Source of the DNA: Candidatus Latescibacterota bacterium
GTDB lineage: Bacteria > Latescibacterota > UBA2968
Assembly (NCBI GenBank): GCA_965222605.1
Contig: OZ244960.1
Coordinates: 2,848,001-2,912,000, forward strand
Reading direction: 5' to 3'
Length of the DNA stretch: 64,000 nt
The translations under genes were made by a program, and so were the position numbers. Below, in pieces: positions 13,601 to 44,984 of the stretch; position 1 is the stretch's first letter; each line of letters begins with the position of its first letter. Under the pieces are notes generated by a model. It did no database searches. It was not told where the DNA came from and saw nothing but the letters and a program-made list of their open reading frames with translations.

Positions 13601-16600
13601 CGGAGTGTCAGCGACCGGCAACACGGACGTGTCGGTAGATAAACCACGTCTAACGTTCACAGCGAACACCTGGAACACAGCGCAGACGGTGACTGTGGAG
13701 GCGGTGCAAGACGAAGACTCAGCGAACGACACAGCCACTGTGCAACACACAGTGAGCGGCGGCGACTACGCCGGGGTGACGGCGGCCTCGGTAGCAGTGA
13801 CGGTGGACGACGACGAAAATCCGCAGCCACCCGTGCAGCCACCCGTGCAGCCACCCGTGCAGCCACCCGTGCAACCACCGCAGCCACCGATAGGGACACC
13901 ACAGGTGGTGACAATCACAGCGGATACTTCACCCGTCACCGAAGGCACGGCTGCGACATTCACAATCACAGCGAACCCTGCACCTACAACCGCAATAACC
14001 GTGAGCGTGAACACCAGCGAGGACGGCAATGTCATCAGCGGCACACCGGACGAAACCGTCACCATCGACGCCAATGAGACCACCGCCACACTGACAGTAG
14101 CAACGCACGATGATCAAATAGATGAGCCAAATAGCGAGGTGACAGCGCAATTACAAGGTGGAACAGGCTATGCAGTAGGCACACCGTCCTCAGCAACCGT
14201 CACCGTTGAAGACAACGACATTTCGCCGCCGGGAACCCCACAGGTGACAATCACAGCGGATACTTCACCCGTCACCGAAGGCACGGCTGCGACATTCACA
14301 ATCACAGCGAACCCTGCACCTACAACCGCAATAACCGTGAGCGTGAACACCAGCGAGGACGGCAATGTCATCAGCGGCACACCGGACGAAACCGTCACCA
14401 TCGACGCCAATGAGACCACCGCCACACTGACAGTAGCAACGCACGATGATCAAATAGATGAGCCAAATAGCGAGGTGACAGCGCAATTACAAGGTGGAAC
14501 AGGCTATGCAGTAGGCACACCGTCCTCAGCAACCGTCACCGTTGAAGACAACGACATTTCGCCGCCGGGAACCCCACAGGTGACAATCACAGCGGGGACT
14601 TCACCCGTCACAGAAGGTATAGCTGCGACATTTACAATCAGAGCGAACCCTGCACCTACAACAGCAATAACCGTGAGCGTGAACACCAACGAGGACGGCA
14701 ATGTCATCAGCGGCACACCGGACGAAACCGTCACCATCGACGCCAATGAGACCACCGCCACACTGACAGTAGCAACGCACGATGATCAAATAGATGAGCC
14801 AAATAGCGAGGTGACAGCGCAATTACAAGGTGGAACAGGCTATGCAGTAGGCACACCGTCCTCAGCAACCGTCACCGTTGAAGACAACGACATTTCGCCG
14901 CCGGGAACCCCACAGGTGACAATCACAGCGGGGACTTCACCCGTCACCGAAGGCACGGCTGCGACATTCACAATCACAGCGAACCCTGCACCCACAACAG
15001 CAATAACCGTGAGCGTGACCGTGACAGAGACAGAAGATATCATCAGCGGCACACCGCCCTCAACAGTCACCATCGGCACCACAGGTCAGGCCACACTGAC
15101 AGTAGCAACGCACGACGACGATGTAGGTGAAGACGACAGCGAGGTGACAGCGCAATTACAAGGTGGAACAGGCTATGCAGTAGGCACACCGTCCTCAGCA
15201 ACCGTCACCGTCAACGACAATGACATCCCGCAGGTGACAATCACAGCGAATACGTCACCCGTCACAGAAGGTATAGCTGCGACATTTACAATCAGAGCAA
15301 ATCCCAGACCGGCAACCCCACTAACTGTAAACGTGAACGTCACCCAGACCGGCGATGTCCTCAGCGGCACTCCACCTTCGACAGTCACCTTCCGCGCCAA
15401 TCAGACCACCGCCACCCTTACAGTAGCAACAGACGACGACGATGTGCGCGAAACCGATGGTACCGTAATGGCGCAAATAACTGCGGGTGTCGGCTACACA
15501 GTGGGATCACCATCCTCGGCAACCGTCACCGTTGAGGACAATGACACACCTCCCAATCATCCAGCCACAGGTGCCCCAATAATCATCGGCACACCCGAGT
15601 TGCGTGAAACACTAACAGCGGATGTCTCTAACATCCGGGATGCCAATGGCCTCGAAAATGTCACTTATGCCTATCAGTGGATCCGCGTAATGGGCAGTAT
15701 GGAGACCCAGATCCCCGGTGCCACAGCTCCGACATACGAAGTAGTAACAGACGATAGTGGTTACCGGCTAAAAGTTCGGGTGAACTTCACCGATGATCTG
15801 GGCTATCCCGAAGAATTGGAAAGCGCATTGACAGCGATGGTGGTCATACCGGGGGTAACACCGGTAATATCAATCACAGCGGACCCCCCAAGTGTCACCG
15901 AAGGCACGGCTGCGACATTCACAATCACAGCGACCCCTGCACCCACAATCACACTGACCGTGAACATAAGCGTGACCGAGACCGCCAATACCCTCAGCGG
16001 CACACCACCCGCAACCGTCACCATCAGCGCCGGCCAGACCACACTGACAGTAGCAACAGACGATGATAAGACAGACGAACACGCCAGTGTCGTAACCGCG
16101 CAAGTGCAAGCCGGAATAGGCTATGTAGTGGGCACGCCATCCTCGGCGAGAGTGCTCGTGCTGGATGATGATTTGCCACCATCGATAGACGCAACCCTGA
16201 GCAGCCTGACAATCAACCCCGGCGTTATGAACCCGACATTTGACTCAGCGACATTGTCCTACACTGCCCTATTGCCGAACGCGACCTCAACCGTAACAGT
16301 TACAGCAACACCCAATAACCCGGACGCAACCGTATCCATCAACGGTCAGAACGCGACCACATTGGACGTGCCATTTACCGGTGACACGATGGACATCACA
16401 GTAACAGTAACTGCCGTAGATAACATCACGCAATTGACCTATACCATCACAGTCAACCGTGCGCCAGCAGGGCTTCCACAAGTGACCATCACAGCAAATC
16501 CCACAACCGTCACCGAAGGCACGGCTGCCACATTCACAATCACAGCAAACCAGCCATCGGTAACCGATCTGATCGTGAACGTGAAGGTAACAGAGACCGC

Positions 16601-19600
16601 CAAAATGCTCAGCGGCACACCGCCCTCGACTGTCACCATCAGCGCCGGCCACACCACCGCCACACTGACAGTAGCAACAGACGACGATGATATAGATGAA
16701 CACGCCAGCATGGTAAAAGCGCGACTACAAGCCGGAACAGGCTATACAGTAGGCGATCCATCCTCGGCGAGCGTACTCGTGCTGGACGACGAAGTGACGA
16801 TATCTACAGACGCGACCCTGAACAGCTTGACAATCAACCCCGGTACACTGAACCCGACATTCGATCCGGAGACATTGGACTACACCGTCTCAGTGACAAA
16901 CGGGGTCTCGACCATAACGGTTACAGCAATAGGCAATAACGCGGGCGCAACCATATCCATCAACGGGCAGAACACCACCTCATTGGATGTTTCACTTGTC
17001 GAAGGCACAAATACCATCACAGTAACAGTAACAGCCGAAGACAACACCACGCAATTGACCTACACCATCACAGTAACCCGGCAAGAGCCTATCCCCAACC
17101 GCCCAGCCACAGGTGCCCCAACAATCATCGGCACACCCGAAGTGGGTCAAACACTCACAGCGGATGTCTCTAACATCCAGGATGCCGACGGCCTCGAAAA
17201 TGTAACCTATGCCTATCAATGGATACGCGTCAGAGGCGATGTGGAAACCGAAATCCCCAATGCCACAGGTACAACGTACGAAGTCGCAACAGCCGACATT
17301 GATCACCAGATAAAAGTTCGGGTGAACTTCACCGACGATGCGGGCAATGCCGAAGAATTGGAAAGCGCGTTGACCAGCGCCGTCGTTGCACCCGTCGTAA
17401 CACCCGTCTTGACCATCTCGGCAAGTGCTACAAGCATCACCGAAGGCACGGCTGCCACATTCACAATCACAGCAACCCCTGCACCCACAACCGAACTGAC
17501 CATGAACGTGAACATCACCGAAACTGGCAATGTCCTCAGCGGCACACCACCCTCAACCATCACCATCAGCACTGCCCAGACCACTCTCACAGTAGCAACG
17601 AACGACGACAATGTAGATGAAGAAAATAGTGTAATAACCGCAGCACTACAAGCCGGAACAGGCTACACAGTAGGCACACCATCCTCTGCAAGCGTCACCG
17701 TCAACGACAACGACGCGCGCCCCAACAATCCAGCGACAGGAGCTCCAATAATCATTGGCACACCTGAAGTAAGTGAAACACTCACCGCGGACGTCTCTAA
17801 CATCCAGGATGCCGACGGCCTCGAAAATGTCGCATATACCTATCAGTGGATACGAGTGATAGACGGTGTGGAAACCGAAATTGCCGGAGCGACAGGTACA
17901 ACATACGAAGTCGCAACAGCTGACATTGGTCACCAGATAAAAGTCCGGGTGAATTTCACCGACGATCTGGGCAATGCCGAAGAATTGGAAAGCGCGTTAA
18001 CAGCGGTCGTCGTTGCACCAGTGGTACCAGTCCTGACCATCTCGGCAAGCGCTACAAGCATCACCGAAGGCACGGCGGCGACATTCACAATCACAGCGAC
18101 CCCTGCACCCCTAACAGCACTGACCGTGAACATAAGCGTCACCGAAACCGGCAATACCCTCAGCGGCACACCGCCCTCAACCATCACCATCAGCGCCAAC
18201 GAGACCACCCTCACAGTCGCAACGAATGACGACAATATAGATGAAGAAGCCAGCGCGATAACCGCAGCACTACAAGCCGGAACAGGCTACACAGTGGGCG
18301 ACCCATCCTCGGCGAGCGTCACCGTTGACGACAACGACCTTCCCCCGAACTCGCCAGCCACAGGCGCCCCCACAATCATCGGCACACCCAAAGTGTTAGA
18401 AACACTGACAGCCGATGTCTCTAACATCCGGGATGCCGACGGCCTCACCAATGTATCATACACCTATCAGTGGATCCGTTTGGTAGGCAGTGTGGAAACC
18501 GAGATCATCGGAGCCACGGGTGTGACATACGAAGTCACAATAACCGATGTTGATCGCCAGCTAAAAGTTCGGGTGAACTTCACCGATGATCTGGGCAATG
18601 CCGAAGAATTGGAAAGCGCATGGACAGCTGTTATTGCAGCAGAGGAACCTCGCGTGGTGAAACTGGACGGATGGCTGGCGCGATTTGGGCGAACAGCATC
18701 GAATCATGTAATCGAGACAGTGCGCGAACGCGTGAGGGGGCACGTAGGCACCAACCATGTGGTGATCGGCGGATACAACCTGAATGAGATGAATTATAAC
18801 GGACTATTCTACAATCCGATATTGATGCCAGGCGAGTTCCCAATGAGATTTAGCATTGAGGCCGCGCAGAGTGCTCAAAGCAAAGAGATATTGAAGCAAA
18901 TAATATCGAGTACATCATTTGCTCTGTCCGGCACACTTGGGCCGTATAGCGAACCTCGATGGGCAGTGTGGGGTCGGGGCGCAACAACGCGCTTTAGTGG
19001 CACCGACGACGATCAGACAGTAGAAGGCGACGTAACATCGGTCATGCTGGGCATCGACTATGGAGATAACCGTTTCCAGGGTGGGCTTGTCCTATCCTAC
19101 ACCATGGGCGATGGGATACTGGGCACCATCGCCAATACCCGCGACGAATGGTCAGTAGAGACAACGCTGACAGGTATTTACCCCTGGACACGCCTCGCAG
19201 TGACAAACCGGTTCTCTGTATGGGGAATGCTGGGCTATGGAGGAGGCGACCTGCCCCTTTCGCGCGACGGCATCAAGAAATTAGAGACAGACGCAAACAT
19301 GGTGATGGGAGCCATTGGTACCCGCACCGATTTGGTCGGATCGACCTGGCATGACGGATTCTCATTATCACTGGCGTCAGATGCAGTGCTATCGCGTGCG
19401 AATGCGGATGATCTGGCGGATTTGTTGGAAAATAAGGGCACTGCGAGCCGTGTACGCGTGTTATTAGAGGGATCACACGTACTCTGGGTCTCCGGGGGAT
19501 CACTGCACCCATTGGCCGAGTTGGGAATGCGGTATGATGGCGGCGATGCAGACACGGGCATGGGGATAGAAATTGGTGCCGGGATGCGCTATGTGCTGAC

Positions 19601-34677: not shown

Positions 34678-34746
34678 GTAAGAAGTAAGACGTAAAAGGT
34701 GAGAGGGCCACCCTACCTCTCTCACGTCTCACGTTTCACGTCTCAC
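34678..34746. repeat. Inverted pair of heptamer tandem arrays between atpD and atpC
   Basis: GTAAGAA GTAAGAC GTAAAAG GTGAGAG ... CTCTCAC GTCTCAC GTTTCAC GTCTCAC. Confidence 0.7.
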
Positions 34747-34757
34747 CGCCTTTAAAA

Positions 34758-35162
34758 ATGGCCTCTTTCCAATTAGACATCGTAACACCCGAAAAAACCG
34801 TGTACTCTGGCGAAATTGTGCATTTTCAAGCGCCGGGAGTTGACGGCAGTTTTGGCGTACTGGCGCGCCACCAGCCCCTGCTGGCCGCACTCGGCATTGG
34901 TCGGGTCGGTCTCCGAGAAGCAGATGGCACCGAGCGCACCCTCGCCATCAGCGGTGGATTCGCCAATGTATCGGGTGACGGTGCAACAATCCTCGCAGAA
35001 GCAGCCGAGTTTGGCGATGAGATCGACATAGAACGCGCGCGCGCCGCACGAGATCGGGCACAAGAGCGATTGGACAACCGCACACCCGACGTAGATGTAG
35101 AACGCGCACAAACAGCACTGGCACGGGCGTTTATACGGCTGCGCGTGACAGGTGCTGAATAG
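34758..35162 (+). CDS. atpC: ATP synthase F1 subunit epsilon
   Basis: LDIVTPE, GSFGVLARH, ISGGFA, EIDIERA. Confidence 0.96.
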   Translation: MASFQLDIVTPEKTVYSGEIVHFQAPGVDGSFGVLARHQPLLAALGIGRVGLREADGTERTLAISGGFANVSGDGATILAEAAEFGDEIDIERARAARDRAQERLDNRTPDVDVERAQTALARAFIRLRVTGAE

Positions 35163-35169
35163 TATTTTT

Positions 35170-35227
35170 AGAAATAGAAATGAGAAAGCACGCTCCGATT
35201 GATTAGAGCGTGCTTTTTTATTTTTTT
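35170..35227 (+). terminator. Intrinsic terminator of the atp operon (duplicated at 36366-36411)
   Basis: AAAGCACGCTC-loop-GAGCGTGCTTTTTT. Confidence 0.85.
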
Positions 35228-35236
35228 ATCTGACCC

Positions 35237-35274
35237 ACGGTTCGTTGACACCTTTTTGGCTCTGGACTATATTG
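35237..35274 (+). promoter_or_regulatory. Repeated sigma70 promoter module P, copy 1
   Basis: ACGGTTCG-TTGACA-N17-TATATT-G. Confidence 0.8.
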
Positions 35275-35334
35275 TGGATGATCGTGGGAGGGCAAGGGAG
35301 ATTGTATTCAGTATTGAAAGGATAAGAATTAAAC

Positions 35335-36360
35335 ATGACTGATGTTGCGCTGCGCGTACTCGTGACAGGTGCTGCGGGATTTATTGGATTTCATCTTTCC
35401 AAACTACTGCTCGAAATGGGTTATTCAGTAGTCGGATTGGACAATGTGAACGATTATTACAATACCCAGCTCAAAGAAGATCGCCTATCTATTCTAAAGC
35501 GGGAAGACGGATTCAAATTTGTTCGCATGCATCTCGAGGACGAAAAGGGAATCGCAGACCTTTTTCGCGCAGAGCATTTTTCTCATGTCATCAATCTCGC
35601 AGGTCAGACAGGCGTGCGTTACAGTCTGGAAAACCCTTTGGTTTATGTCAAAAGCAATGTGATGGGTTTTCTCAACATCCTGGAGGGATGTCGCCATTGC
35701 GATATCGAACATCTGGTCTATGCGTCGTCGAGTTCTGTTTATGGCTTGAACGCCACCACGCCTCATGGCGTCCGTCAAAACGTCGATCATCCGATCAGCT
35801 TGTACGCGGCGACAAAAAAATCAGATGAACTAATGGCGCATGTGTATAGCCATTTGCACGGCATTCCGACCACAGGATTGCGCTTTTTCTCTGTGTATGG
35901 ACCCTGGGGACGTCCGGATTTTGTCGCCTACTTGTGGACCAAAGCCATTTTGGAAGATCGACCGGTCAAAGTCTATAATCACGGCAAGATGCGTCGCAGT
36001 TTTACGTATGTCGGCGACATTGTCAAAGGGATAGTTCGCGTACTGTCAAATCCCGCAAAGCCAGATCCCGAGTGGACAGGACAATGTCCCGAACCGGGAT
36101 CGAGTTCCAGCCCCTATCGCATTTACAATATTGGCAATCCCAATGTCATAGAACTGGAGTATTTCCTCTCGCTATTGGAGGATTTATTGGGCAAAAAGGC
36201 TATCCGAAAAGATTTGCCCATGCAGCCCGGAGACGTACAGGATAATGCAGCAGATGTTTCGGAGCTAATGCGAGATGTGGGCTACAATCCCTCAACGCCC
36301 ATAGAAACAGGGCTTGCAAATTTTGTCGCGTGGTACAAGGACTATCACAATGTGAAGTAA
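35335..36360 (+). CDS. NAD-dependent epimerase, UDP-glucuronate 4-epimerase-like
   Basis: TGAAGFIG, DNVNDYY, ASSSSVYG, YAATKK, GLRFFSVYGPWGRPD, MQPGDV. Confidence 0.9.
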   Translation: MTDVALRVLVTGAAGFIGFHLSKLLLEMGYSVVGLDNVNDYYNTQLKEDRLSILKREDGFKFVRMHLEDEKGIADLFRAEHFSHVINLAGQTGVRYSLENPLVYVKSNVMGFLNILEGCRHCDIEHLVYASSSSVYGLNATTPHGVRQNVDHPISLYAATKKSDELMAHVYSHLHGIPTTGLRFFSVYGPWGRPDFVAYLWTKAILEDRPVKVYNHGKMRRSFTYVGDIVKGIVRVLSNPAKPDPEWTGQCPEPGSSSSPYRIYNIGNPNVIELEYFLSLLEDLLGKKAIRKDLPMQPGDVQDNAADVSELMRDVGYNPSTPIETGLANFVAWYKDYHNVK

Positions 36361-36365
36361 ATCGG

Positions 36366-36411
36366 AGAAACAGAAAGGAGAAAGCACGCTCTGTTTAGAG
36401 CGTGCTTTTTT
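36366..36411 (+). terminator. Intrinsic terminator, direct repeat of the atp terminator
   Basis: AGAAACAGAAAGGAGAAAGCACGCTC-TGTTTA-GAGCGTGCTTTTTT. Confidence 0.85.
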
Positions 36412-36643
36412 GTTTTCCTTTCAGGTCAAAACCCCAAGGTGGTATGGTGAAAGCTCAAGACGCATATAAGGAACAAATCTTCAGCCTATAAGTCTATGTT
36501 GTGGAAACAGATTACTTTGGGGAAATGATACATTAAGCAGATGATACAATGTATCCTTTAATGGCATTGTTCCAAACCAGATTGCCCTCTCCGCCTCTGA
36601 TGTACTCCTGTGGAATGCTGGCAGCCTTCCTTGAGGAGAAGAT

Positions 36644-37309
36644 ATGAAATACTTTATGAGTATCCTGGTCTTGTTGATAATGTCTTATTCTGCTCCTATT
36701 TTCGGACAGCACATCGTCGCTGTCCGGTGGGGTGGAAATATGACAAAAATCGGTGGTTTTGATCATCAGGGCACGCCGCGCAGAAGTATGAGGATAGGCG
36801 CCTCTGTAACCATTCCAATACAGAACCGCTTTAGCCTTCAAGCTCATGGCGACTATGTCCCAAAAGGAGCAAGAGAGGACGATTTTTATTATTATACCGG
36901 ATTATACATTGACTACATCGAACTTTCAGGATTGGGAGTTTTTACAGTCTTCGCTCCTTCTCGGGGACCCTCTTTGTCTATACTCGCCGGGCCTACGATA
37001 GCATTCAAGATCAAAAACCGAGGAGAAGAAATACTGGCAAAAAGATACGGGCAGGGCCAAAATCGCTTTGAATTCAAATCTATGGACTTTGGTTTTGCTG
37101 GCGGGATCGGTACACAGATAGCAATTTTCAAACCATGGATAGTCACAACAGAGATTCTATACACCAGGAGCATCCGATCTATCAACAAAACCACTTTCTA
37201 TATCATAGATTTTGATTCTCACACAGCAGAAAAACGTGGCCTGATGAACCACGCCCTTTCCTTCTCTGTTGGGCTCGGTTTTTCTTATGGCAGAAGAACG
37301 GGAGGTTAA
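36644..37309 (+). CDS. Outer-membrane beta-barrel (porin-family) protein
   Basis: Signal peptide, YVPKGA, YIDYIEL, LAGP, FKSMDFG, C-terminal SFSVGLGF. Confidence 0.7.
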   Translation: MKYFMSILVLLIMSYSAPIFGQHIVAVRWGGNMTKIGGFDHQGTPRRSMRIGASVTIPIQNRFSLQAHGDYVPKGAREDDFYYYTGLYIDYIELSGLGVFTVFAPSRGPSLSILAGPTIAFKIKNRGEEILAKRYGQGQNRFEFKSMDFGFAGGIGTQIAIFKPWIVTTEILYTRSIRSINKTTFYIIDFDSHTAEKRGLMNHALSFSVGLGFSYGRRTGG

Positions 37310-37310
37310 A

Positions 37311-38717
37311 ATGAACTCTGTCATGTCAACATATATTCGCAGGATCCTTGTGGTAGCACTGACTACTGGTGTGATGGGGAGCCCTATATGGGGGCAGGAG
37401 ATTGAGACGGCTGTAACCTCATTTGTGATAGGCGGCGTGACACTCCAGGAAGATGTGAAGAATCCACCCGTGCCGAGTGGCATGCAGAGATTTGAAATCA
37501 CAATGAATAAACCAGTCGTAACTTTTTACGAATTGAGGGAACCTGAAACTTTGCCCTATTTCGATGGCGACAGCATCACCCAGGTAACTATCACTAAGTA
37601 CTTTGATATTGACCGAGATGTTATTTCCTATCCTATTGACCTGCTTTTAGATATCACAATCGCGCAGGATCTGGCCATTAGTCCAGATAGCTTGACATTA
37701 ACAGGCACCATCAGCCTGCCAAAAGGTGCCACCTATCAAGTCCTTTTTGGTGAGTCAGACATAGATCCTATTGATGAACAGCAGCAGTATTTTTTTGGGA
37801 CCGCAGAACTGCCGAATGCTGTTGTTTCTGGTGTAGGCATTGTGGACACCTTACCTGATGGTTTTACAGTAAGCGGTGATCGTTCTGCTGGGGCTGCGCT
37901 CATTGACCCTGAGCGATTTAGACATATTTTCCCATTACTCGAAGAATTCGATGATTTTATTCTATGGTCTTTTGTCCGCATTACCGATTCCAATGAACAA
38001 ATGACATTTGATTTGAAACATGTGCCGGATGGATCTTACGCGATATTGATGGCACATCGTGCAGTGAACGAACAAACCGGCCAGGAGATTCAGATATTTG
38101 GGTATAAAGGGGTCAATCTCTTGACGGGCGAGGTCGATCCTACAGAATTGGTTCAGGTCGTCGATGGAAAAAGCGTGACAGATTTACAAATAGTGTTGCA
38201 AATACCACCAGAAGAACCAGATCCAGTAATTTCTGAAATTCTGGAGGTCAAGGTTCAAAGCGTCAATGCTGAAACAAAATCATTTGTCATTCAACCTGGC
38301 AACCAACAGATACAGATAGATGCTTCAGAGGCCCTGACAGTTTCCCCAGGCCAAATAAGTGCTGAAGAGATCCTCAAGATCTTTTTGTTTTATAATCCTG
38401 ATGATTTCGCACGCATCATTTTTCCTATTACCGACCTGATGGTAGGAGATACCGTTTCTCTCCTGGGAACATACACTTCTGAAACGATGTTCCAGGCCTT
38501 TATAGTAATCCGCCATGAATCGCCTCTGGCACGGAATGGTGATATGGATAGGGATGGGGATGTCGATTTCTCTGATTTTCTACTTTTTACTTCTGCCTTT
38601 GGCACGATGGAAGGAGAACTGGAATACAATCCCTCGGCAGATTTGGACGGGGATGGTGCGGTCGTATTCTCAGACTTTCTGATATTTGCCAGTGCCTTTG
38701 GCAAACCCGTGGGTTAG
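37311..38717 (+). CDS. Secreted acidic protein with a C-terminal EF-hand/dockerin-like pair
   Basis: Signal peptide; GDMDRDGDVDFSDFLLFTSAFG and ADLDGDGAVVFSDFLIFASAFG. RBS GGAGG. Confidence 0.75.
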   Translation: MNSVMSTYIRRILVVALTTGVMGSPIWGQEIETAVTSFVIGGVTLQEDVKNPPVPSGMQRFEITMNKPVVTFYELREPETLPYFDGDSITQVTITKYFDIDRDVISYPIDLLLDITIAQDLAISPDSLTLTGTISLPKGATYQVLFGESDIDPIDEQQQYFFGTAELPNAVVSGVGIVDTLPDGFTVSGDRSAGAALIDPERFRHIFPLLEEFDDFILWSFVRITDSNEQMTFDLKHVPDGSYAILMAHRAVNEQTGQEIQIFGYKGVNLLTGEVDPTELVQVVDGKSVTDLQIVLQIPPEEPDPVISEILEVKVQSVNAETKSFVIQPGNQQIQIDASEALTVSPGQISAEEILKIFLFYNPDDFARIIFPITDLMVGDTVSLLGTYTSETMFQAFIVIRHESPLARNGDMDRDGDVDFSDFLLFTSAFGTMEGELEYNPSADLDGDGAVVFSDFLIFASAFGKPVG

Positions 38718-38788
38718 GAGTATGGTATGACACACAATAAACATCCCAGAGGCTGACACCCTGGGCTGTTTTCTATTTCTCTAAAATG

Positions 38789-38822
38789 AAAGAGCGAGTC
38801 CTTTTTGGCTCGCTCTCTTTTT
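38789..38822 (+). terminator. Intrinsic terminator
   Basis: AAAGAGCGAGTC-CTTTTT-GGCTCGCTCTTTTTT. Confidence 0.75.
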
Positions 38823-38902
38823 ATTAAAATACTTCGTTGTACTGCGCGGGGCATAATTTTATACGGCTCGTTGACACCCCTTTGGGTTTGGGCTATATTG
38901 CA
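38821..38902 (+). promoter_or_regulatory. Repeated promoter module P, copy 2 (long form)
   Basis: TTGACA 38871-38876, N17, TATATT 38894-38899. About 76 bp nearly identical to 42566-42641. Confidence 0.8.
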
Positions 38903-38934
38903 AAATAAGAAGTGTGAATTGGAGGATTTAAGTC

Positions 38935-39195
38935 ATGAATACTTATCGCAGGCGTCTTGTAGTCCAAGACCCCAAACAGATTGTGCTTTCTGATGTTCCT
39001 TTTCAAACAGGTCAAGAAGTGGAAATTACCCTGCGTTCAATAGAGCAGCCCACAGTAGAGCGGAAGAATGAGTTACGCGCCCTGTTGAAGAAGACGCAGT
39101 CACTCTCTCAGATTCAAACTCTCACAGAAGAGGATATTCTCGCTGAAATTGAAGCCTATCGGAATTTTTCGTGTCAGCTAACTGCTGCTCGCTGA
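38935..39195 (+). CDS. Small hypothetical protein, putative antitoxin
   Basis: 86 aa with PFQTGQEVEI and a C-terminal LTEEDILAEIEAYR of the kind seen in PIN-associated antitoxins. RBS GGAGG. No toxin follows. Confidence 0.5.
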   Translation: MNTYRRRLVVQDPKQIVLSDVPFQTGQEVEITLRSIEQPTVERKNELRALLKKTQSLSQIQTLTEEDILAEIEAYRNFSCQLTAAR

Positions 39196-39247
39196 CCACT
39201 ATCCTACAGTTACATATGATATGAACTATAAAACAAAAGGCAGTACG

Positions 39248-39562
39248 ATGCTGGACCAATCAACCCTGAACGACATCATCCGGCGCATTGTAGAGGTCGC
39301 TCATCCAGAGAAGATCATTCTCTTTGGGTCCGCCGCGAGGGGCGACTTGAACCGCCATAGCGACGTTGATCTGCTCGTCGTAAAGGACGACAGTGATTCG
39401 TGGACTGTTATGGGAGACATCTACGGAAACCTGCGCGGCATTGGCGTAGCAGTCGATGCAATCGTGGTCACGCCAGCGCAGATGGAACGTTACAAGGATA
39501 GTCACGCACTGGTGATCAAGCCCGCACTGCAAGAGGGAAGGGTCATATATGAAGCAGCCTGA
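39248..39562 (+). CDS. Minimal nucleotidyltransferase (MNT antitoxin)
   Basis: PEKIILFGSAARGD...SDVDLLVV, EGRVIYEAA. Confidence 0.88.
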   Translation: MLDQSTLNDIIRRIVEVAHPEKIILFGSAARGDLNRHSDVDLLVVKDDSDSWTVMGDIYGNLRGIGVAVDAIVVTPAQMERYKDSHALVIKPALQEGRVIYEAA

Positions 39563-39683
39563 ACGCTTCCCGCCCGACGACCCTCGGGAATGGCTGAACC
39601 GCGCCAGAAGCAATCTGGTTCGCGCAAAAAACCGAATTCCCGGTGCCTATCTCGAAGACTTGTGTTTCGATGCCCAACAGGCG
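39549..39683 (+). pseudogene. HEPN-domain toxin, 3'-truncated
   Basis: PREWLNRARSNL...LEDLCFDAQQA. Homology stops where the expected AEK motif is replaced by a partial P module. Confidence 0.8.
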
Positions 39684-39704
39684 TTGGATTTGGGCTATAT
39701 TGCA
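39684..39704 (+). repeat. Partial promoter module P, copy 3 (-10 half only)
   Basis: TTGGATTTGGGCTATATTGCA versus copy 2 TTGGGTTTGGGCTATATTGCA. Confidence 0.75.
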
Positions 39705-39768
39705 CAAAATATCATCCGCAGAAGAAGGATCCTATACATTGACAGAGACACTATACGGAGACGCTGTG

Positions 39769-40140
39769 ATGACACAGGAACAAAATGAGAAAGTCCAAAC
39801 CATTGTCCGTGAGACCACTGCGGAACGTTTCTCGTCGGATGAGTTCGTGTTCGACCCCATTGTGGTGGTACCGACTGTTGACGAATACGGTTCTGACGCC
39901 AGCGGCGAAACGTATCTTCGCATCATTATTGTCTTCGATGGCGATCAGAAGCAACTCGACTCCAGTTGGACATCCAGCTTCATCAGACGCATTCGCCCGA
40001 AGCTGATTAAGGCAGGCATAGAAGAGTTCCCCAGCCCGTCATGGGTTGAGAAATCTGAGTGGTGGAGTCTGTATCCCAAATGGCGACAACAACACCCAGA
40101 GGTAACTATTGAAACCGCCCGTTACGTGGTAGGTCGATAA
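39769..40140 (+). CDS. Hypothetical protein, possibly a degenerate nucleotidyltransferase-like antitoxin
   Basis: 123 aa after a GGAG RBS. DEYG...YLRIIIVFD...FPSPSWVEKSE pattern. Family uncertain. Confidence 0.5.
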   Translation: MTQEQNEKVQTIVRETTAERFSSDEFVFDPIVVVPTVDEYGSDASGETYLRIIIVFDGDQKQLDSSWTSSFIRRIRPKLIKAGIEEFPSPSWVEKSEWWSLYPKWRQQHPEVTIETARYVVGR

Positions 40141-40155
40141 ATCTCGGTACAATAT

Positions 40156-40193
40156 AAAAAGCCCTCACATTTTGGGGGCTTTTGTATATTACT
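40156..40193. terminator. Terminator B, copy 1 (repeated at 42655-42694)
   Basis: AAAAAGCCCTCACATTTTGGGGGCTTTTGTATATTAC. Confidence 0.8.
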
Positions 40194-40219
40194 TCGTAAT
40201 GCGCAGGATGTAATATAAG

Positions 40220-40258
40220 ACGGTTCGTTGACACCTTTTTGGCTTTGGGCTATATTGC
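40220..40258 (+). promoter_or_regulatory. Repeated promoter module P, copy 4
   Basis: TTGACA 40228-40233, N17, TATATT 40251-40256. Confidence 0.8.
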
Positions 40259-40313
40259 TTGAAAGACCGCTCTAATTTTAAGAAATACGACCTTAGATAG
40301 GAATGACCCGAGA

Positions 40314-41273
40314 GTGAATGCAGGTAATTGGACATTTATTGATTTGTTTGCTGGTATTGGCGGGATGCGTATTCCATTTGAAGACTTAGGTGGCACCTGT
40401 GTGTTTAGTTCTGAGTGGGACGAACCGGCTCAACAGACCTATTATCATAACTTTGGTGAAATGCCAGCGGGCGACATTACGCAAATTGAGGAAGCTACGA
40501 TTCCGGAACACGATATTTTATTGGCGGGGTTCCCTTGCCAACCGTTTAGTATTATCGGCAACAAACAGGGGTTTGAAGATACGCGGGGCACGTTATTCTT
40601 TGATATAGAACGGATTTTGAGAGCAAAGCAACCACAGGCATTTCTTCTTGAAAACGTAAGACAGTTGGTGAGCCACGATAGTGGCAGAACTTTTCGGGTA
40701 ATCTGCGAACATCTTCAAGAACTGGGGTACACCATATACCATAAAATTTTGAACGCACTCGATTTCGGGGTGCCTCAAAAGAGAGAACGGATTTTTATTA
40801 TTGGATTTCGAGACCCCATCGCATTCACTTTTCCGACCGGTAACGGGGATTATAAGCCCCTATCAGAGATTATCGAGCCAGATAGCGAAGTAGATCCAAG
40901 TTTGTTTGCATCGGAGAGAATCCGAAAATCGCGTTTTGAAAAATGCAAAATTGAACCGTTTTATCCCTCTATCTGGCATGAAAATAAAGGCGGTAATATA
41001 TCAGTATTGCCGTTTTCATGTGCTTTGCGAGCCGGGGCATCTTATAACTATCTTTTGGTAAATGGCATTCGTCGCCTTTCAGGGCGAGAACTCTTGCGGC
41101 TACAGGGTTTCCCCGAAGATTTTAAGATTGTCGTAAATATCACACAACTTCGTAAGCAGACCGGAAATAGCGTGGCAATTCCCGTAATTCGCGCGATTGC
41201 CGAGAAAATGCAAGAAGCCTTAATACAACGAAAACGCCCAGAACTTCCCGCGAAACAACTCACACTTTTATAG
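40314..41273 (+). CDS. DNA (cytosine-5)-methyltransferase
   Basis: DLFAGIGG, GFPCQPFS, ENV, PQKRERIF, RLQGFP, KQTGNSV. Confidence 0.95.
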   Translation: MNAGNWTFIDLFAGIGGMRIPFEDLGGTCVFSSEWDEPAQQTYYHNFGEMPAGDITQIEEATIPEHDILLAGFPCQPFSIIGNKQGFEDTRGTLFFDIERILRAKQPQAFLLENVRQLVSHDSGRTFRVICEHLQELGYTIYHKILNALDFGVPQKRERIFIIGFRDPIAFTFPTGNGDYKPLSEIIEPDSEVDPSLFASERIRKSRFEKCKIEPFYPSIWHENKGGNISVLPFSCALRAGASYNYLLVNGIRRLSGRELLRLQGFPEDFKIVVNITQLRKQTGNSVAIPVIRAIAEKMQEALIQRKRPELPAKQLTLL

Positions 41274-41294
41274 AAACATCAGGGCTTATACTCA

Positions 41295-42353
41295 ATGGAC
41301 AATCGTGCTGCAAAACGAAGCCTGGATACCGTGATCAAAAAAGCCCGTATCCATCTCTACAAACCGATACAGATTGCAGAGATACTCCACAGGGATAGAG
41401 TGGTCGGCGACATTGAGCTTAAAGATTTGGAAACTTATCGAACGCAGTCAAGAAAATGGCGCGATGAGGTTTGTATGAGAATTTTGGGAAGATCTTCGAC
41501 CTCAAGCGCGCGATTCCAGGACAATCTTTTTGATTTAAATGCGACACCTCCACCCGTTCTGATGACATTGGGAGAGATAAATCGCAGATATAACGGCGCA
41601 GTAGAAGCCTACATTTACGAGGCTTTTAGACAGAAACACGCCCAAATGTCGAAATGGTTAGATTATGTGAGATATTCAGACCGAACGAGTTTCAAATTGC
41701 AGAACTTTATTGCGGGTTTCCGACGTGACCCCGGTTTGGCGAGAAGCGTCGATAAAATTTTTGAAATTGTGGTCTATGCCTTGTTCTCAACGCTTTTAGA
41801 AGCTCTTGAAGTAAAAGTCGGTGTGAAGATTGAGAATATTGAAAACGCGATTCTCCGGGAGTTTTCCGACTTCACGGAAAAAGTACTCGGATTGTCTCAA
41901 GCAATGCCCGAGACGTATCAAGATGCTAAGGTCTATAGAGTTGGCGTGACGAACGCCGCTGATAGAGGGCTTGATATGTGGGCGAATTTTGGCGTCGCTA
42001 TTCAAATAAAGCATTTATCCCTGACACCCGAAATGGCAGACGATATTTCTAATAACATTTCAGCCGATAGAATCATCATTGTTTGTAAAGCGTGCGAGAA
42101 AGACGTTCTAATTTCGGTATTGCGACAATTTGGTGGTGCAAACAGAATTCAAAGCGTAATAACAGAAGACGAGCTTGATGTATGGTACGAAAAAGCCTTA
42201 CAGGGAAGATCGGCAACACTAATAGGCGACAAAGTCCTGGAAAGATTGGAGAACGAAATCACAGTTGAATTTCCTTCCACGGTCGAGTTTGATAGGTTTT
42301 TTAAGTCGCGGAGCTACCATCAGTTGCCAATTCTCGATATTTGGCGCGATTGA
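41295..42353 (+). CDS. Type II restriction endonuclease, HaeII-like
   Basis: KARIHLYKPIQIAEIL, SSARFQDNLF, RVGVTNAADRGLDMWANFG..IQIKH recalled as HaeII-family motifs. Directly follows the m5C methyltransferase. Confidence 0.75.
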   Translation: MDNRAAKRSLDTVIKKARIHLYKPIQIAEILHRDRVVGDIELKDLETYRTQSRKWRDEVCMRILGRSSTSSARFQDNLFDLNATPPPVLMTLGEINRRYNGAVEAYIYEAFRQKHAQMSKWLDYVRYSDRTSFKLQNFIAGFRRDPGLARSVDKIFEIVVYALFSTLLEALEVKVGVKIENIENAILREFSDFTEKVLGLSQAMPETYQDAKVYRVGVTNAADRGLDMWANFGVAIQIKHLSLTPEMADDISNNISADRIIIVCKACEKDVLISVLRQFGGANRIQSVITEDELDVWYEKALQGRSATLIGDKVLERLENEITVEFPSTVEFDRFFKSRSYHQLPILDIWRD

Positions 42354-42407
42354 ACCTTTGTTGCCAGACCAACTCGGGATCATCCTATGTGGCCTGCCCA
42401 AGAATCA

Positions 42408-42560
42408 GTTACGCATGTCTCGCGTTTCTGTCATGCTGAGGAAGCCGTCAGGCTGACGAAGCATCTTTTACTTCTGAAGGTAATAGGTGATAGTAGATTC
42501 TTCGACTCCGCTGCGCTCCGCTCAGAATGACAGGCGCAGGATATTGTGCCTCTGCGTAAC
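42408..42560. repeat. Palindromic MITE/REP-like element
   Basis: GTTACGCA...TGCGTAAC ends enclosing TGTCATGCTGAG...CTCAGAATGACA. Confidence 0.65.
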
Positions 42561-42565
42561 GTCAG

Positions 42566-42694
42566 TTATTAAAATGCTTCGTTGTGCTGCGCGGGGCATA
42601 AGCTAATACGGCTCGTTGACACCCTTTTGGGTTTGGGCTATTCGGAATAAAATCAAAAAGCCCCCACATTATGCGGGGGCTTTTGTAGATTACT
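42566..42694 (+). repeat. Empty P module (copy 5) directly followed by terminator B
   Basis: TTGACA 42616-42621, N17, broken -10 (TATTCG), then AAAAAGCCCCCACATTATGCGGGGGCTTTTG with no gene between. Confidence 0.8.
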
Positions 42695-42724
42695 GCATCA
42701 TTCACGATGGATATCTTTTTCCAA

Positions 42725-43243
42725 CTACTGAGTCTTTACTGGCAACGTAAGTCGCATCCTGAATGTGGTGCTTTTGTCCTCGACGCTAAGATCAGTGCGG
42801 ATTTTTGGATTGTCTTTATTTTTGATTGATATATTGCAAGGGGCTGTAAATACCACCTGTCGGTGGGCTTGTTGGTTGATCTCAACGAGACCGGGAAAAA
42901 TATTAATCACTGCGCGTTGATTAATCTCGCGAACACTGTCAAAGGAACCGTACTCGCTTATGACGCTCTCAGCCAGGCCGCCCACTCGTTTACAGGTCTC
43001 GACAGCGGCTTTCACAGAGGAATATTGCTGCTTAACAGTAAATTTGACAAACTTTTGATCATTTTCAAACCTTGCAAAAGCATCCAAACCCCACAACTTC
43101 CCCTTATAGCTCCCCTTATCTGGTCCCACTTCTACTTTTTTCCATGTTTCCTCTGTTTCTTCTGTTTCCTCTGCTCGGATGGATGACGTATGCGACATCA
43201 CCCAAAAGAAACATATTGTTGCTAAAATCACACAAGCCCTCAT
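42725..43243 (-). CDS. Hypothetical secreted protein
   Basis: 172 aa, signal-like N-terminus, EET x3 microrepeat, RBS GAGGA. Confidence 0.55.
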   Translation of the reverse strand: MRACVILATICFFWVMSHTSSIRAEETEETEETWKKVEVGPDKGSYKGKLWGLDAFARFENDQKFVKFTVKQQYSSVKAAVETCKRVGGLAESVISEYGSFDSVREINQRAVINIFPGLVEINQQAHRQVVFTAPCNISIKNKDNPKIRTDLSVEDKSTTFRMRLTLPVKTQ

Positions 43244-43256
43244 AGCTTCCTCGCAC

Positions 43257-44984
43257 TTAATATTCTCGACACCGATTCGTAATAGGCAATCGCCTATCGC
43301 GACCGAATGCGCGGGGTGTAATCTTGATACCTGGCGGTGCCTGGCGGCGTTTGTATTCGTTGATATCTACCGTGCGGATAACCCGCGTGACGAGTTCCTC
43401 GTCATAGCCCAGCGCGATAATATCTTGCAAACTCGCATCGTCCTCCACATACGCTTTGAGAATCGGATCCAGCACCGGATAAGGAGGCAAGCTATCCGTA
43501 TCTTTCTGATCATCGCGCAACTCAGCCGTAGGAGGTCGCTCGATAATCGAAACGGGAATAACGGGATGATCAGACAGACCATTGCGATAATGCGCCAGAT
43601 CATAAACAAGCGTCTTGTAAATATCTTTAATAACCGCAAACCCACCAGCCATATCCCCGTAAAGCGTGGCATAGCCCATACTCAACTCGCTCTTATTCCC
43701 CGGCGCAAGCACGAGCGCGCGGAACTTATTGGCAAGCGCCATCAGCAAAGTCCCCCGAACACGCGGCTGGATATTCTCCTCCGCAGTATCAGAAGGCAAA
43801 TCGCCAAACTCGTCGGCAAGAAGACCCAGATATTGGTCGAACAACGCCTGAATCGGCAACGTCAGAATGCGAATATCGAGATTGCCCGCCATCTGCAGGG
43901 CGTCATTAAACGTGCCCTCTGACGAATACTGGGTAGGCATCGTCACACACACCACATTCTCTCTCCCCAGCGCATCGTGGGCAACAGCCGTGACAAGCGC
44001 CGAGTCAATCCCGCCGGACAACCCGATGAAAACCTTCTCAAATCCATTCTTCAAAACATAGTCGCGCGTACCCAGAACAAGCGCATCGTAAATATTTTTG
44101 AGGCGCTCATCTGGACGAGGAAAATCTGGTCTCTCAGGCGGAGAAAGACATACAGATTTGGGTTTCAGATCGGGCAGATCAATAGCGATAGGAGAAGAAA
44201 CATCGCGTTTTTCCTTGCGCCGACGCGAATCGTGCAGGCGGTTGCGAAAAACAGCCTCAACATCAACATCCGCCACCAGCAGGTCTTCCTCAAACCGGGG
44301 CGCCCGCGCAATAACGCGTCCTTCTTGATCGACAATCAGGCTACCCCCATCAAAAATCAATTCATCCTGCCCACCGACGAGATTGCAAAAAGCGAGAACA
44401 GCGCTGTTATCAGTCGCACGCGTAGCAATCATCTGCTCGCGCAACAACTCTTTGCCATCGTGGAAAGGTGAGGAGGAAATATTGATAAGCACCTCGGCAT
44501 CGCCGGCAAGTGCTTGCTCCCTGGCGGGACCGCCGGGATACCAGATATCCTCGCAGATCGTAACCCCAAAAGAAACCCCATTGAGGCGGTACACACCCGA
44601 GGTCTTGCCAGATTGGAAATAGCGGTCTTCGTCAAAGACGCCGTAATTGGGCAAATAGGTCTTGTGATAAACATCGATCAAGTGCCCGTCGCAAGCAATA
44701 GCTGCGGCATTGTAGATATCGTCGTGACGATCCACAAATCCGAAAATTGCAGCAACACCCTGCGTCGCCCGAACGAGTTCGTCCAGCACACTGAGGTTGG
44801 ATTGGATAAACCGGGGCTTAAAAAGCAAATCTTCGGGCGGATAGCCCGGAATCGCGAGCTCGGGAAAAACAACAATATGCGCCCCCAAATCGCGTGCTCT
44901 GTGAATATGGTCGAGAATTTTATCACGGTTGCCCGCAAGATCACCTACGGTGACATTGATTTGCGATAGGGCAAGGCGAATCAC
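43257..44984 (-). CDS. nadE: Glutamine-dependent NAD+ synthetase
   Basis: VVFPEL, GYPPEDL, LPNYGVFDE, ICEDIW, GLSGGIDS, NKSE, GYATLYGD, EYKRRQ. Confidence 0.97.
   Translation of the reverse strand: MIRLALSQINVTVGDLAGNRDKILDHIHRARDLGAHIVVFPELAIPGYPPEDLLFKPRFIQSNLSVLDELVRATQGVAAIFGFVDRHDDIYNAAAIACDGHLIDVYHKTYLPNYGVFDEDRYFQSGKTSGVYRLNGVSFGVTICEDIWYPGGPAREQALAGDAEVLINISSSPFHDGKELLREQMIATRATDNSAVLAFCNLVGGQDELIFDGGSLIVDQEGRVIARAPRFEEDLLVADVDVEAVFRNRLHDSRRRKEKRDVSSPIAIDLPDLKPKSVCLSPPERPDFPRPDERLKNIYDALVLGTRDYVLKNGFEKVFIGLSGGIDSALVTAVAHDALGRENVVCVTMPTQYSSEGTFNDALQMAGNLDIRILTLPIQALFDQYLGLLADEFGDLPSDTAEENIQPRVRGTLLMALANKFRALVLAPGNKSELSMGYATLYGDMAGGFAVIKDIYKTLVYDLAHYRNGLSDHPVIPVSIIERPPTAELRDDQKDTDSLPPYPVLDPILKAYVEDDASLQDIIALGYDEELVTRVIRTVDINEYKRRQAPPGIKITPRAFGRDRRLPITNRCREY

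Follow-up and report, generated by a model that had tools for sequence, protein, structure and literature searches.

A repeated terminator-promoter module at the boundaries of variable addiction and defence cassettes in a genus of Candidatus Latescibacterota

Organisation of the locus downstream of the atp operon

The DNA analysed here (the window) is a stretch of 64,000 nucleotides from a Candidatus Latescibacterota bacterium (G000, the genome under study), corresponding to positions 2,848,001-2,912,000 of the single 6.34-Mb contig OZ244960.1 (assembly GCA_965222605.1). Downstream of its atp operon lies an array of unrelated genes in which a short repeat, consisting of a predicted intrinsic terminator, an AT-rich linker, and a consensus-like sigma-70 promoter, recurs in front of the genes (hereafter, the module). 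The array differs among related genomes, and its cassettes, which carry mostly addiction and defence genes, are found there in other combinations. The features of the locus are as follows (window coordinates, strand, description).

34758-35162, +, atpC (ATP synthase epsilon; Pfam ATP-synt_DE_N and ATP-synt_DE), last gene of the atp operon and left anchor
35170-35231, +, type B terminator, copy 1, an inverted repeat with its hairpin at 35185-35216 and a T-run
35237-35278, +, module copy 1, predicted promoter of the epimerase gene (11/12 match), with the variant ending in GGCTCTGGAC before TATATT
35335-36360, +, NAD-dependent sugar epimerase/dehydratase (Pfam Epimerase, 9.7e-52), a core gene
36366-36422, +, type B terminator, copy 2 (85% identity to copy 1), with a remnant of the type B linker and without the promoter core
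36644-37309, +, outer-membrane beta-barrel protein (Pfam OMP_b-brl_2, below the cut-off), without a module, in 5 of the 14 intervals compared
37311-38717, +, c3, dockerin/EF-hand-like secreted protein (weak match to Pfam Dockerin_1; NCBIfam dockerin_GC), left border of the array
38791-38816, +, type A terminator, that of c3 (10-pair stem and T-run), first part of a 125-bp repeat
38821-38907, +, linker and module copy 2 (76-bp repeat, 38821-38896; core, 38863-38907), from repeat finding and promoter scan
38935-39195, +, first cassette gene, encoding an 86-aa protein, putative antitoxin by gene order
39221-39562, +, minimal nucleotidyltransferase (MNT; Pfam Polbeta and NTP_transf_2; PADLOC PDC-S09)
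39549-39788, +, truncated HEPN gene, HEPN-like up to ca. 39692 (positions 2-37 of the 117 of the Pfam HEPN profile)
39684-39709, +, right half of a module (spacer end and -10 box; nhmmer profile positions 20-45), fused to the broken HEPN gene
39769-40140, +, hyp123, recurrent cassette gene encoding a 123-aa protein, no family match
40156-40184, +, type C terminator, copy 1, downstream of hyp123, recognised by eye (87.5% identity to 42655-42694)
40192-40264, +, short linker and module copy 3 (core, 40220-40264), from repeat finding and promoter scan
40314-41273, +, C5 cytosine DNA methyltransferase (Pfam DNA_methylase, 1e-94; PADLOC MTase_II)
41295-42353, +, HaeII-type restriction endonuclease (R.HaeII; Pfam RE_HaeII, 1.7e-133; PADLOC REase_II)
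42408-42572, +, 165-nt repeat resembling a miniature inverted-repeat transposable element (MITE), unrelated to the module, from its genome copies and comparison with G017
42566-42641, +, linker and module copy 4, terminal, cargo-less, and cut in the -10 box (92% identity to the copy 2 repeat)
42642-42706, unstranded, 65-nt insert with a two-way terminator (hairpin, 42656-42684; terminator scan), type C copy 2
42725-43243, -, hyp172 (c4), convergent right border of the array, no family match
43257-44984, opposite strand to the atp genes, nadE (NAD_synthase and CN_hydrolase), next beyond hyp172

Sequence of the module and its terminators

A preliminary description of the window, made from its letters alone, had reported four full modules, one half copy, and duplicated terminators, and its sequence observations were borne out. 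Full modules start at 35237, 38863, 40220, and 42608 and a right-half copy at 39684, that is, 4.5 copies within 7.5 kb; the left 16-mer of the module had four exact matches in the window in a pattern search, against 0.04 expected by chance. The module core is a consensus sigma-70 promoter of 39-45 bp, and the repeat extends to 76-125 bp when the AT-rich linker and the upstream terminator are included. TTGACA, 17 nt, and TATATT follow one another in the three intact copies, each of which is an 11/12 promoter match, and these were the top three sigma-70 matches in a promoter scan of 34700-43300. The -10 box of copy 4 is lost, TATTCG replacing TATATT. Repeat finding recovered the repeat of about 76 bp at 38821-38896 and 42566-42641 (92% identity over 76 nt), and a third member of this repeat family, at 40178-40253, showed 71% identity to 38821-38896. 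Copy 3 was 90% identical over 60 nt to a copy at genome position 1130610.

Directly upstream of copies 1-3 there are predicted terminators with a hairpin and a T-run (35185-35216, 38791-38816, and ca. 40160-40184), the third of which was recognised by eye and is missing from the list of the terminator scan. The duplicates at 35170/36366 (85% over 55 nt) and 40156/42655 (87.5% over 40 nt) were detected by BLAST, the former also by repeat finding. Type A terminators are located downstream of c3 and of each of the four cassettes in G020, and type A, linker, and core together form the ca. 125-bp repeat. Type B, whose linker varies in length, follows atpC, the epimerase gene, panE, and other genes; the copy downstream of atpC is kept in 9/9 aligned genomes, and the second copy is followed by a full module in G004, G005, and G008. 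Type C follows hyp123 and also abuts hyp172, where the 65-nt insert at 42642-42706 is absent from genomes of the G005 type.

A conservation profile was built from 54 full copies (from 59 unique contexts, the five partial copies being dropped). Conservation was 0.9-1.0 at nearly every position of the 39-nt core, the promoter spacer included. Upstream of the core, an AT-rich run abutting it and a GC-rich box showed values of 0.5-0.8, and beyond ca. +10 conservation was at background. No pair of core and inverse-core sites was apparent in the consensus of the 54 copies, to which the attC model of IntegronFinder was not applied, and the module core contained neither inverted-repeat half-sites nor a hairpin. 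Folding of 57 linkers gave no common hairpin besides the terminators and nothing resembling attC or IS200 ends. An RNA family was also considered and discarded; Rfam scans of the region and three other loci gave only sub-threshold matches to amino-acid leaders on the terminator hairpins.

The MITE-like repeat next to copy 4 has short terminal inverted repeats and ca. 15 more whole or partial copies genome-wide, the full-length ones being 75-88% identical. It lies between the R.HaeII gene and the last module, at a place where G017 has a type A terminator.

Copies elsewhere in the genome and taxonomic range

A profile search of the whole 6.3-Mb genome with filters off found seven full modules and one half module and nothing else below E = 1. 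Of the three copies outside the window, one heads AbiEi/AbiEii and again has a type B terminator upstream, one heads an MNT and HEPN pair, and one heads a gene for a 126-aa protein followed by the remnant of an HNH nuclease gene. The module is thus infrequent and clustered, its cargo being of the addiction and defence kind, and it is not a general promoter type; scattering ahead of ordinary genes, which the preliminary description had named as a result that would speak against it, was not observed.

The distribution of the module was examined with a 31-mer allowing up to 3 mismatches, for which a reversed-pattern control gave 0 matches. The 31-mer was present in 17 of the 20 other genomes of the genus (1-9 copies each) and in none of four genomes from other genera of the family. 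Among 16 genomes of the sister family, one had a single match, with 3 mismatches, upstream of a Band7 gene. Within the genus, G013 carried 0 modules at 98% completeness, and G010 and G018 likewise had none. The exact degenerate pattern occurred at 17 loci among 185,579 species genomes, all in records of metagenome-assembled genomes of Candidatus Latescibacterota/Latescibacteria, and five short contigs matched the module in a scan of 241 million metagenome records. The module is specific to one Latescibacterota genus, as an exact match was seen in no other genus among these species.

Variation of the atpC-hyp172 interval among relatives

Orthologues of atpC and hyp172 were found in 19/20 and 13/20 genus-mates, respectively, and the two genes are convergent on one contig in 11 genomes, G000 included. 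The distances between them were 2.3, 4.0, 4.7, 5.1, 7.6 (G000), 8.4, 11.3, 13.3, 24.1, 31.8, and 46.3 kb, and in G004 they are separated by ca. 226 kb. Fourteen intervals were compared. Open reading frames (ORFs) called with a crude script formed 150 clusters, 146 representatives of which were scanned against Pfam, four clusters spanning joins of fetched pieces being dropped. The profile search detected 32 modules in 13 of the 14 intervals (none in G013), and all 32 are on the atp strand.

The backbone of the interval consists of atpC, the epimerase gene, a variable stretch, and c3, followed by hyp172 and nadE on the opposite strand. Two-component systems, polysaccharide genes, and outer-membrane protein genes are what lies between the epimerase gene and c3. 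c3 was present in 11 of the 14 intervals; in G000, neither this gene nor the outer-membrane protein gene before it has a module, as the preliminary description had noted. The insertion hotspot which that description placed after the atp operon does vary in content, but the array proper lies between the convergent c3 and hyp172 and not directly after atpC. This part holds 0 to 4 or more cassettes. G013 has neither cassette nor module here, and G014, G011, and G007 have no cassette and one terminal module (a half copy in G007). One cassette is present in each of G017 (restriction-modification, R-M), G009 (86-aa gene and PIN), and G005 (126-aa gene and HNH), three in G000, four in G020, and more in G019, which contains duplicated blocks. 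Identical gene content in relatives, another result at odds with exchange, was thus not found in these intervals of 2.3-46 kb.

In six genomes the modules exceed the cassettes by one (4/3 in G000; 2/1 in G005 and G017; 1/0 in G014, G011, and G007). The surplus module is the last one, carries no cargo, and abuts hyp172. Terminal modules orthologous to copy 4 abut hyp172 in G005, G011, G014, and G006, and as half copies in G007 and G017.

The epimerase gene, which had been taken for cassette cargo, is a core gene found in 13/13 intervals, and it is its promoter allele that has been exchanged. Among nine aligned genomes, the atpC-epimerase spacer contains the module in two (G000 and G008) and an unrelated 52-nt sequence in seven. 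The module and leader replace the 52-nt allele exactly from the T-run of the terminator to the region of the ribosome-binding site. The module before the epimerase gene is thus a swapped-in allele.

Cargo of the modules

Twenty-six of the 32 modules bear cargo, and the remaining 6/32 are terminal and cargo-less. Recognisable toxin-antitoxin (TA), R-M, or HNH pairs follow 15 of the 26, hyp123 follows four, a 62-aa ORF two, and ordinary genes five (the epimerase gene three times, a GWxTD protein gene, and c3). Outside the intervals, where 36 of 67 clusters were scanned with small or duplicate ORFs left out, the cargo comprised HigB with a helix-turn-helix protein, Phd, DUF433 with DUF5615, and MNT with HEPN, as well as the 126-aa and HNH pair in at least eight genomes, heparinase (4 genomes), iPGM, a tetratricopeptide repeat protein, and a pentapeptide protein. 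As judged from these family matches, the cargo is mostly addiction and defence genes, namely TA pairs of types II, IV, and VII, a type II R-M pair, and a small protein with an HNH nuclease.

The 126-aa protein together with a 142-aa HNH nuclease (L015:582-1010, - strand, and orthologues) is the commonest cargo of the module, and the HNH domain of the nuclease resembles those of PtuB and IscB. This pair has a conserved home locus in at least eight genomes, and three atp-linked arrays contain it as well. The HNH gene of G000 has decayed to a remnant at L006:7150-7260.

The cargo calls of the preliminary description were upheld with Pfam for the epimerase, the 86-aa and MNT genes, the 123-aa protein of no known family, and the R-M pair, but the HEPN gene proved to be truncated; it matches Pfam HEPN to residue 48 only, i.e. 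to the start of the half module. The 86-aa protein had no match above threshold in Pfam, PADLOC, or NCBIfam, and its model was poor globally (predicted template modelling score, 0.30) and gave no fold match. Downstream of the 86-aa gene, relatives have MNT, PIN_3, hyp123, or some other small gene, and homology stops ca. 30 nt ahead of the 86-aa stop codon. From gene order, the 86-aa protein is a putative antitoxin. hyp123 likewise had no family match in Pfam, PADLOC, or NCBIfam, and none of its 108 homologues is named beyond 'hypothetical protein'. Its model is confident (predicted local distance difference test, 87) and has an alpha/beta fold, with no more than middling matches to type-II KH/RbfA-like folds (Foldseek E of at least 0.009; VIA Z, 7.6-8.9). 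The toxic partner is repeatedly broken: HEPN is cut at three points in three genomes (G000, G019, and G020), and R.HaeII is internally deleted in G019 and G020, while MNT and the methylase remain intact.

Junctions, reassortment, and signs of exchange between species

Homology blocks between G000 and its relatives begin at the module start for the 86-aa cassette (G020) and for the R-M cassette (G019 and G020). Other blocks stop at the 3' edge of the module, with block ends at, e.g., 38906 and 40180-40220. At the first of these, nothing in G019 separates the R.HaeII stop codon from the 86-aa leader, and their joint corresponds to the position that follows TATATTGC in G000. The R-M pair has three left flanks, namely type C with a short linker (G000), type A (G017, G019, and G020), and a fourth type (G019), which in G020 heads the 86-aa cassette. 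The 86-aa gene stands behind two left flanks, and in two genomes it is fused directly, a module being absent; for hyp123 and for the HNH pair, at least three flank types were recorded. Where G000 has the half copy at 39684, a complete module stands upstream of hyp123 in relatives. Since cargoes occur with several flanks, and every left flank type occurs with several cargoes, the junctions lie in the module. Breakpoints were thus related to the module, with block ends at its edges and cargo behind different flanks, in line with what the preliminary description had expected, and we infer from these alignments that recombination takes place at the module.

Half modules broken in the promoter spacer were found three times (at 39684 in G000, and as the terminal copy in both G007 and G017). 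They were considered as proof of a fixed crossover point, an argument that is weakened by the three break points in HEPN, by the possibility that G007 and G017 represent one event, and by 6-7 nt of microhomology.

DNA identity between G000 and its relatives was 88.6-92.8% for atpC, 85-91% for the epimerase gene, and 90-92% for hyp172 (95.6% in G011 over a partial match). The values for cassette genes were 89.6-95.7% (86-aa gene and MNT), 95-98% (hyp123), 92-95% (methylase), and 94-97% (R.HaeII). In 13 of 14 comparisons, the cassette gene had a higher identity than the atpC genes of the two genomes concerned. G000 and G019 share 98.6% identity over the 3' part of c3. Beside the AbiE cassette, panE (L007, G000:C1:2368000-2381000) has 100% protein identity to its counterpart in G019 (G019:C1:685305-686285) and is present in only 4 of the 21 genomes of the genus; on this evidence, the panE region looks like a recent transfer. 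Taken together, the high identities of the cassettes, c3, and panE point to recent transfer within the genus.

Four of 24 public runs, all four in the form of assembled contigs, were compared with the array. Their contigs contained joints from 36411 to 40222 (epimerase terminator to module), 40062 to 42655, 38823 to 42569, 39164 to 39760 (86-aa gene towards hyp123), and, in run X21, 42641 to 42707 (terminal module without the 65-nt insert). These joints match arrangements found in relatives. A single joint going backwards, from 42407 to 38789 in run X23, equally fits a relative with terminator A at the end of the R-M cassette. Because the boundaries are repeats and one side often covers only ca. 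30 nt, the joints show variation among co-occurring relatives and not excision.

A second variable gap and the search for mobility genes

The gap between the convergent MR_MLE and SSF genes (L008, G000:C1:505000-518000) is a second variable spot. Of the 11 genomes in this comparison, four have nothing there (10-28 nt), three (G000, G014, and G011) have a module-headed MNT-HEPN cassette, and five have reverse-strand TA-like DNA without a module; G019 has a 3.3-kb insert. No target duplication was found at this gap, and the cassette has only the core in common with other module copies.

The preliminary description had noted no integrase or transposase nearby, and none of their domains was detected between atpC and the M23 peptidase gene (34.7-49 kb). 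No recombinase gene adjoins any of the 14 intervals, except an IS110 transposase in G019 and broken insertion sequence (IS) fragments in the polysaccharide part of G020. In the whole genome, the best match to IntI (TIGR02249) scored 88 bits against a cut-off of 265, and of the ten matches to PF00589 (tyrosine recombinases) the nearest is about 145 kb away from the array. Filled and empty sites, when compared, showed neither terminal inverted repeats nor a target-site duplication at the module.

Proposed mechanism and alternative explanations

Cassette shuffling is evident from the genome comparison, and its enzymology can be proposed as follows. The unit comprises a predicted intrinsic terminator, an AT-rich linker resembling an UP element, and a consensus sigma-70 promoter, heading small self-contained cassettes that are stacked head-to-tail in one direction between two convergent genes, with single ones in a few other convergent gaps. 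As predicted from the sequence, the terminator of each unit would halt read-through from upstream, and its promoter would express the next cargo. Since the same 39-125 bp recur at every boundary, the repeat may serve as a homology patch for general recombination of the host. Cassettes could thereby be deleted, duplicated, reordered, and exchanged, within the chromosome and between related species, with their neighbours unbroken. Illegitimate deletions would occur in addition and would repeatedly remove the toxic partner (HEPN or the restriction enzyme). On balance, we consider it probable that the module and its cargo are a portable regulatory cassette, a genus-specific, chromosomal counterpart of the promoter-stem-loop cassettes of T4-type phages discussed below, with addiction and defence cargo.

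Several observations weigh against this proposal. In solitary cassettes at other loci, the 39-45 bp core is the sole shared sequence, a second homology patch being absent. Homologous recombination alone does not account for their first arrival. Some breakpoints lie off the module edges, inside HEPN (three points), inside R.HaeII, and in the promoter spacer. The 29 full copies tested were no more alike within than between genomes (0.665 vs. 0.658, permutation p of ca. 0.38), and with no homogenisation within genomes, frequent gene conversion is not seen. The array ends without a terminal module in G009, G019, G020, and G002, and G013 has neither module nor cassette. Finally, the contig joints are ambiguous, the modules being repeats, and most of them have only ca. 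30 nt on one side.

The variation could also arise if the module were only a shared strong or co-regulated promoter without a part in recombination, and the locus varied as defence islands generally do, by illegitimate insertion between convergent genes and by allelic replacement via the flanking genes. The long flanks of ca. 90% identity (atpC, the epimerase gene, hyp172, and nadE) would be enough for allelic exchange, the MR_MLE-SSF gap also varies and has TA pairs without a module in five genomes, modules are not homogenised within genomes, and some of them head ordinary genes (epimerase, heparinase, iPGM, and the GWxTD protein). However, a single 39-nt sequence is common to nine or more unrelated cargo families, and this alone presupposes joining events at the module; moreover, cargo-less terminal modules exist in seven genomes, flanks and cargoes are reassorted with the junction inside the module, and block ends coincide with module edges. 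A role as a promoter alone is judged rather unlikely. Another explanation is a dedicated site-specific recombinase encoded in trans, which would recognise the 39-nt core and insert circular units of cargo and one module at a resident module, in the manner of an integron or dif-module system with a new site. All 32 modules in one orientation, the six genomes with one module over the cassette number, a spacer conserved at 0.9-1.0 although a promoter needs no such conservation, and solitary cassettes at new loci with only the core in common would be expected from such an enzyme, as would two or three independent half modules (39684 in G000, G007, and G017) broken at the same spacer point, CTTTTG/G. 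Yet the half modules of G007 and G017 may derive from one ancestral deletion at the 6-7 nt microhomology, the junctions are spread over the 5' edge, the 3' edge, and the middle of the spacer instead of sharing one position, and the core has no inverted-repeat half-sites or hairpin. No recombinase apart from the G019 IS110 transposase and the G020 IS fragments accompanies the 14 intervals, and no IntI was found in the genome. We regard a dedicated recombinase acting on circular units as unlikely. A related and quite improbable idea is that the 39-nt core, spacer included, is at once a promoter and the attachment site for a gene-capture system not yet described, whose enzyme would act in trans; a small free-standing HNH nuclease, the kind found in the commonest cargo, acting via homing-like double-strand-break repair, or an unlinked recombinase, would be a candidate. 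If so, the promoter sequence itself would be the recombination site, in an integron-like manner without IntI or attC.

It is also conceivable that the module is a MITE or IS remnant with an outward promoter, scattered by a transposase. Mobile promoters on MITE-like elements are known, e.g. Correia elements (cited in PMC3575422), and a genuine MITE-like repeat adjoins copy 4. Against this, filled and empty sites gave no terminal inverted repeats or target-site duplication, there are only 7.5 copies, all upstream of genes and co-oriented with them, and in the atpC-epimerase spacer sequence was replaced and not inserted into. An origin from such a remnant is hardly credible. The portable regulatory cassette, recombined by homology at its repeated boundaries, therefore remains the reading we prefer.

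Comparison with known systems

The preliminary description had suggested an undescribed system. The array itself was not found in the literature searched, but there is a precedent in the promoter-early stem-loop (PeSL) cassettes of T4-type phages, which consist of a terminator stem-loop, an AT-rich region, and a consensus promoter (PMC2839356). PeSLs are reported to occupy hyperplastic regions and to mediate insertions, deletions, and replacements through recombination, for which a dedicated enzyme has not been identified; Arbiol et al. (2010) state that there was then no evidence of such plasticity in cellular organisms (PMC2839356). Among the 20 top-ranked of 536 literature matches, the term PeSL was used in this sense only in two T4-phage papers (Arbiol et al. 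2010, PMC2839356; Comeau et al. 2014, PMC4122927).

The module shares with PeSLs a consensus sigma-70 promoter, an AT-rich stretch upstream of the -35 box, and an adjacent predicted terminator stem-loop. Both head small non-essential genes in hyperplastic regions, where insertions, deletions, and replacements are bounded by the repeat. The likeness proposed is one of parts and behaviour, and no claim of homology in sequence is made. Here the array is part of a bacterial chromosome of 6.3 Mb, flanked by the atp operon and nadE/surA, whereas PeSLs lie in T4-type phages; the cargo comprises TA, R-M, and HNH pairs, in contrast to the phage ORFans associated with PeSLs; and the terminator is 30-50 nt upstream of the promoter, whereas it overlaps the promoter in PeSLs. 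Circular excision products (mini-circles) are a feature of the phage system; the public runs compared with the present array consisted of assembled contigs. As the array is located in a chromosome and not in a T4-type phage, it can be said to work like PeSLs but not to be a member of them.

Like integrons, sedentary chromosomal ones included, and clusters of attC sites lacking integron integrases (CALINs), the locus is a one-directional, TA-rich array of small unrelated cassettes at a fixed site that varies between relatives. Unlike them, it has no IntI and no attC-type imperfect palindrome at the cassette ends, as the preliminary description had anticipated in calling it integron-like without attC sites. 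Each cassette has its own predicted 11/12 promoter, whereas integrons use a common Pc. Every integron-defining feature that was tested fails.

Neisseria minimal mobile elements consist of variable cargo, often R-M systems, between conserved genes, and are exchanged by homologous recombination without mobility genes of their own. The present locus resembles them in the variable cargo between conserved flanking genes and in the lack of mobility genes; they differ from it in that each site takes a single cargo and contains no repeated module. The present organism is not known to be naturally transformable. The dif modules of Acinetobacter plasmids are small cargo units, including TA pairs, with a short repeated site and no recombinase in the unit, and the array is similar in all of these respects. 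Their dif sites are XerC/XerD-binding palindromes in alternating orientation. By contrast, 32/32 modules here are direct repeats, and no dif-like half-sites were apparent, although no formal search for them was made.

Putative mobile promoters are defined as upstream regions of high similarity, with 80% identity or more across 50 nt or more, before unrelated genes of one genome, and how they move is unknown (Matus-Garcia, Nijveen, and van Passel 2012; PMC3575422). The module fits this operational definition, the threshold being reached within one genome ahead of non-homologous genes. It differs from these promoters in its association with terminators, the tandem arrays at a hotspot, the addiction and defence cargo, and the location of the junctions by comparison.

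If the mechanism proposed here holds, shuffling of regulatory cassettes would operate in a cellular chromosome and would move addiction and defence genes between species of an uncultured phylum without a dedicated mobility gene. It would also offer a simple answer to how integrase-free defence hotspots are organised, with one short element providing insulation, expression, and portable homology. For a phylum without genetic tools, the module would in addition be a naturally occurring and compact combination of terminator, UP-like stretch, and consensus promoter.

Other features of the genome

Elsewhere in the window, at 11480-18640, there is a very long coding region with diverged tandem repeats of ca. 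300-340 nt (7-12 copies per family, 60-100% identity), which probably encodes a giant repeat-domain surface protein. Outside the window, at G000:C1:2998776-2998991, a second, partial atpC-like stretch is 78% identical over residues 58-133 and has a stop codon.

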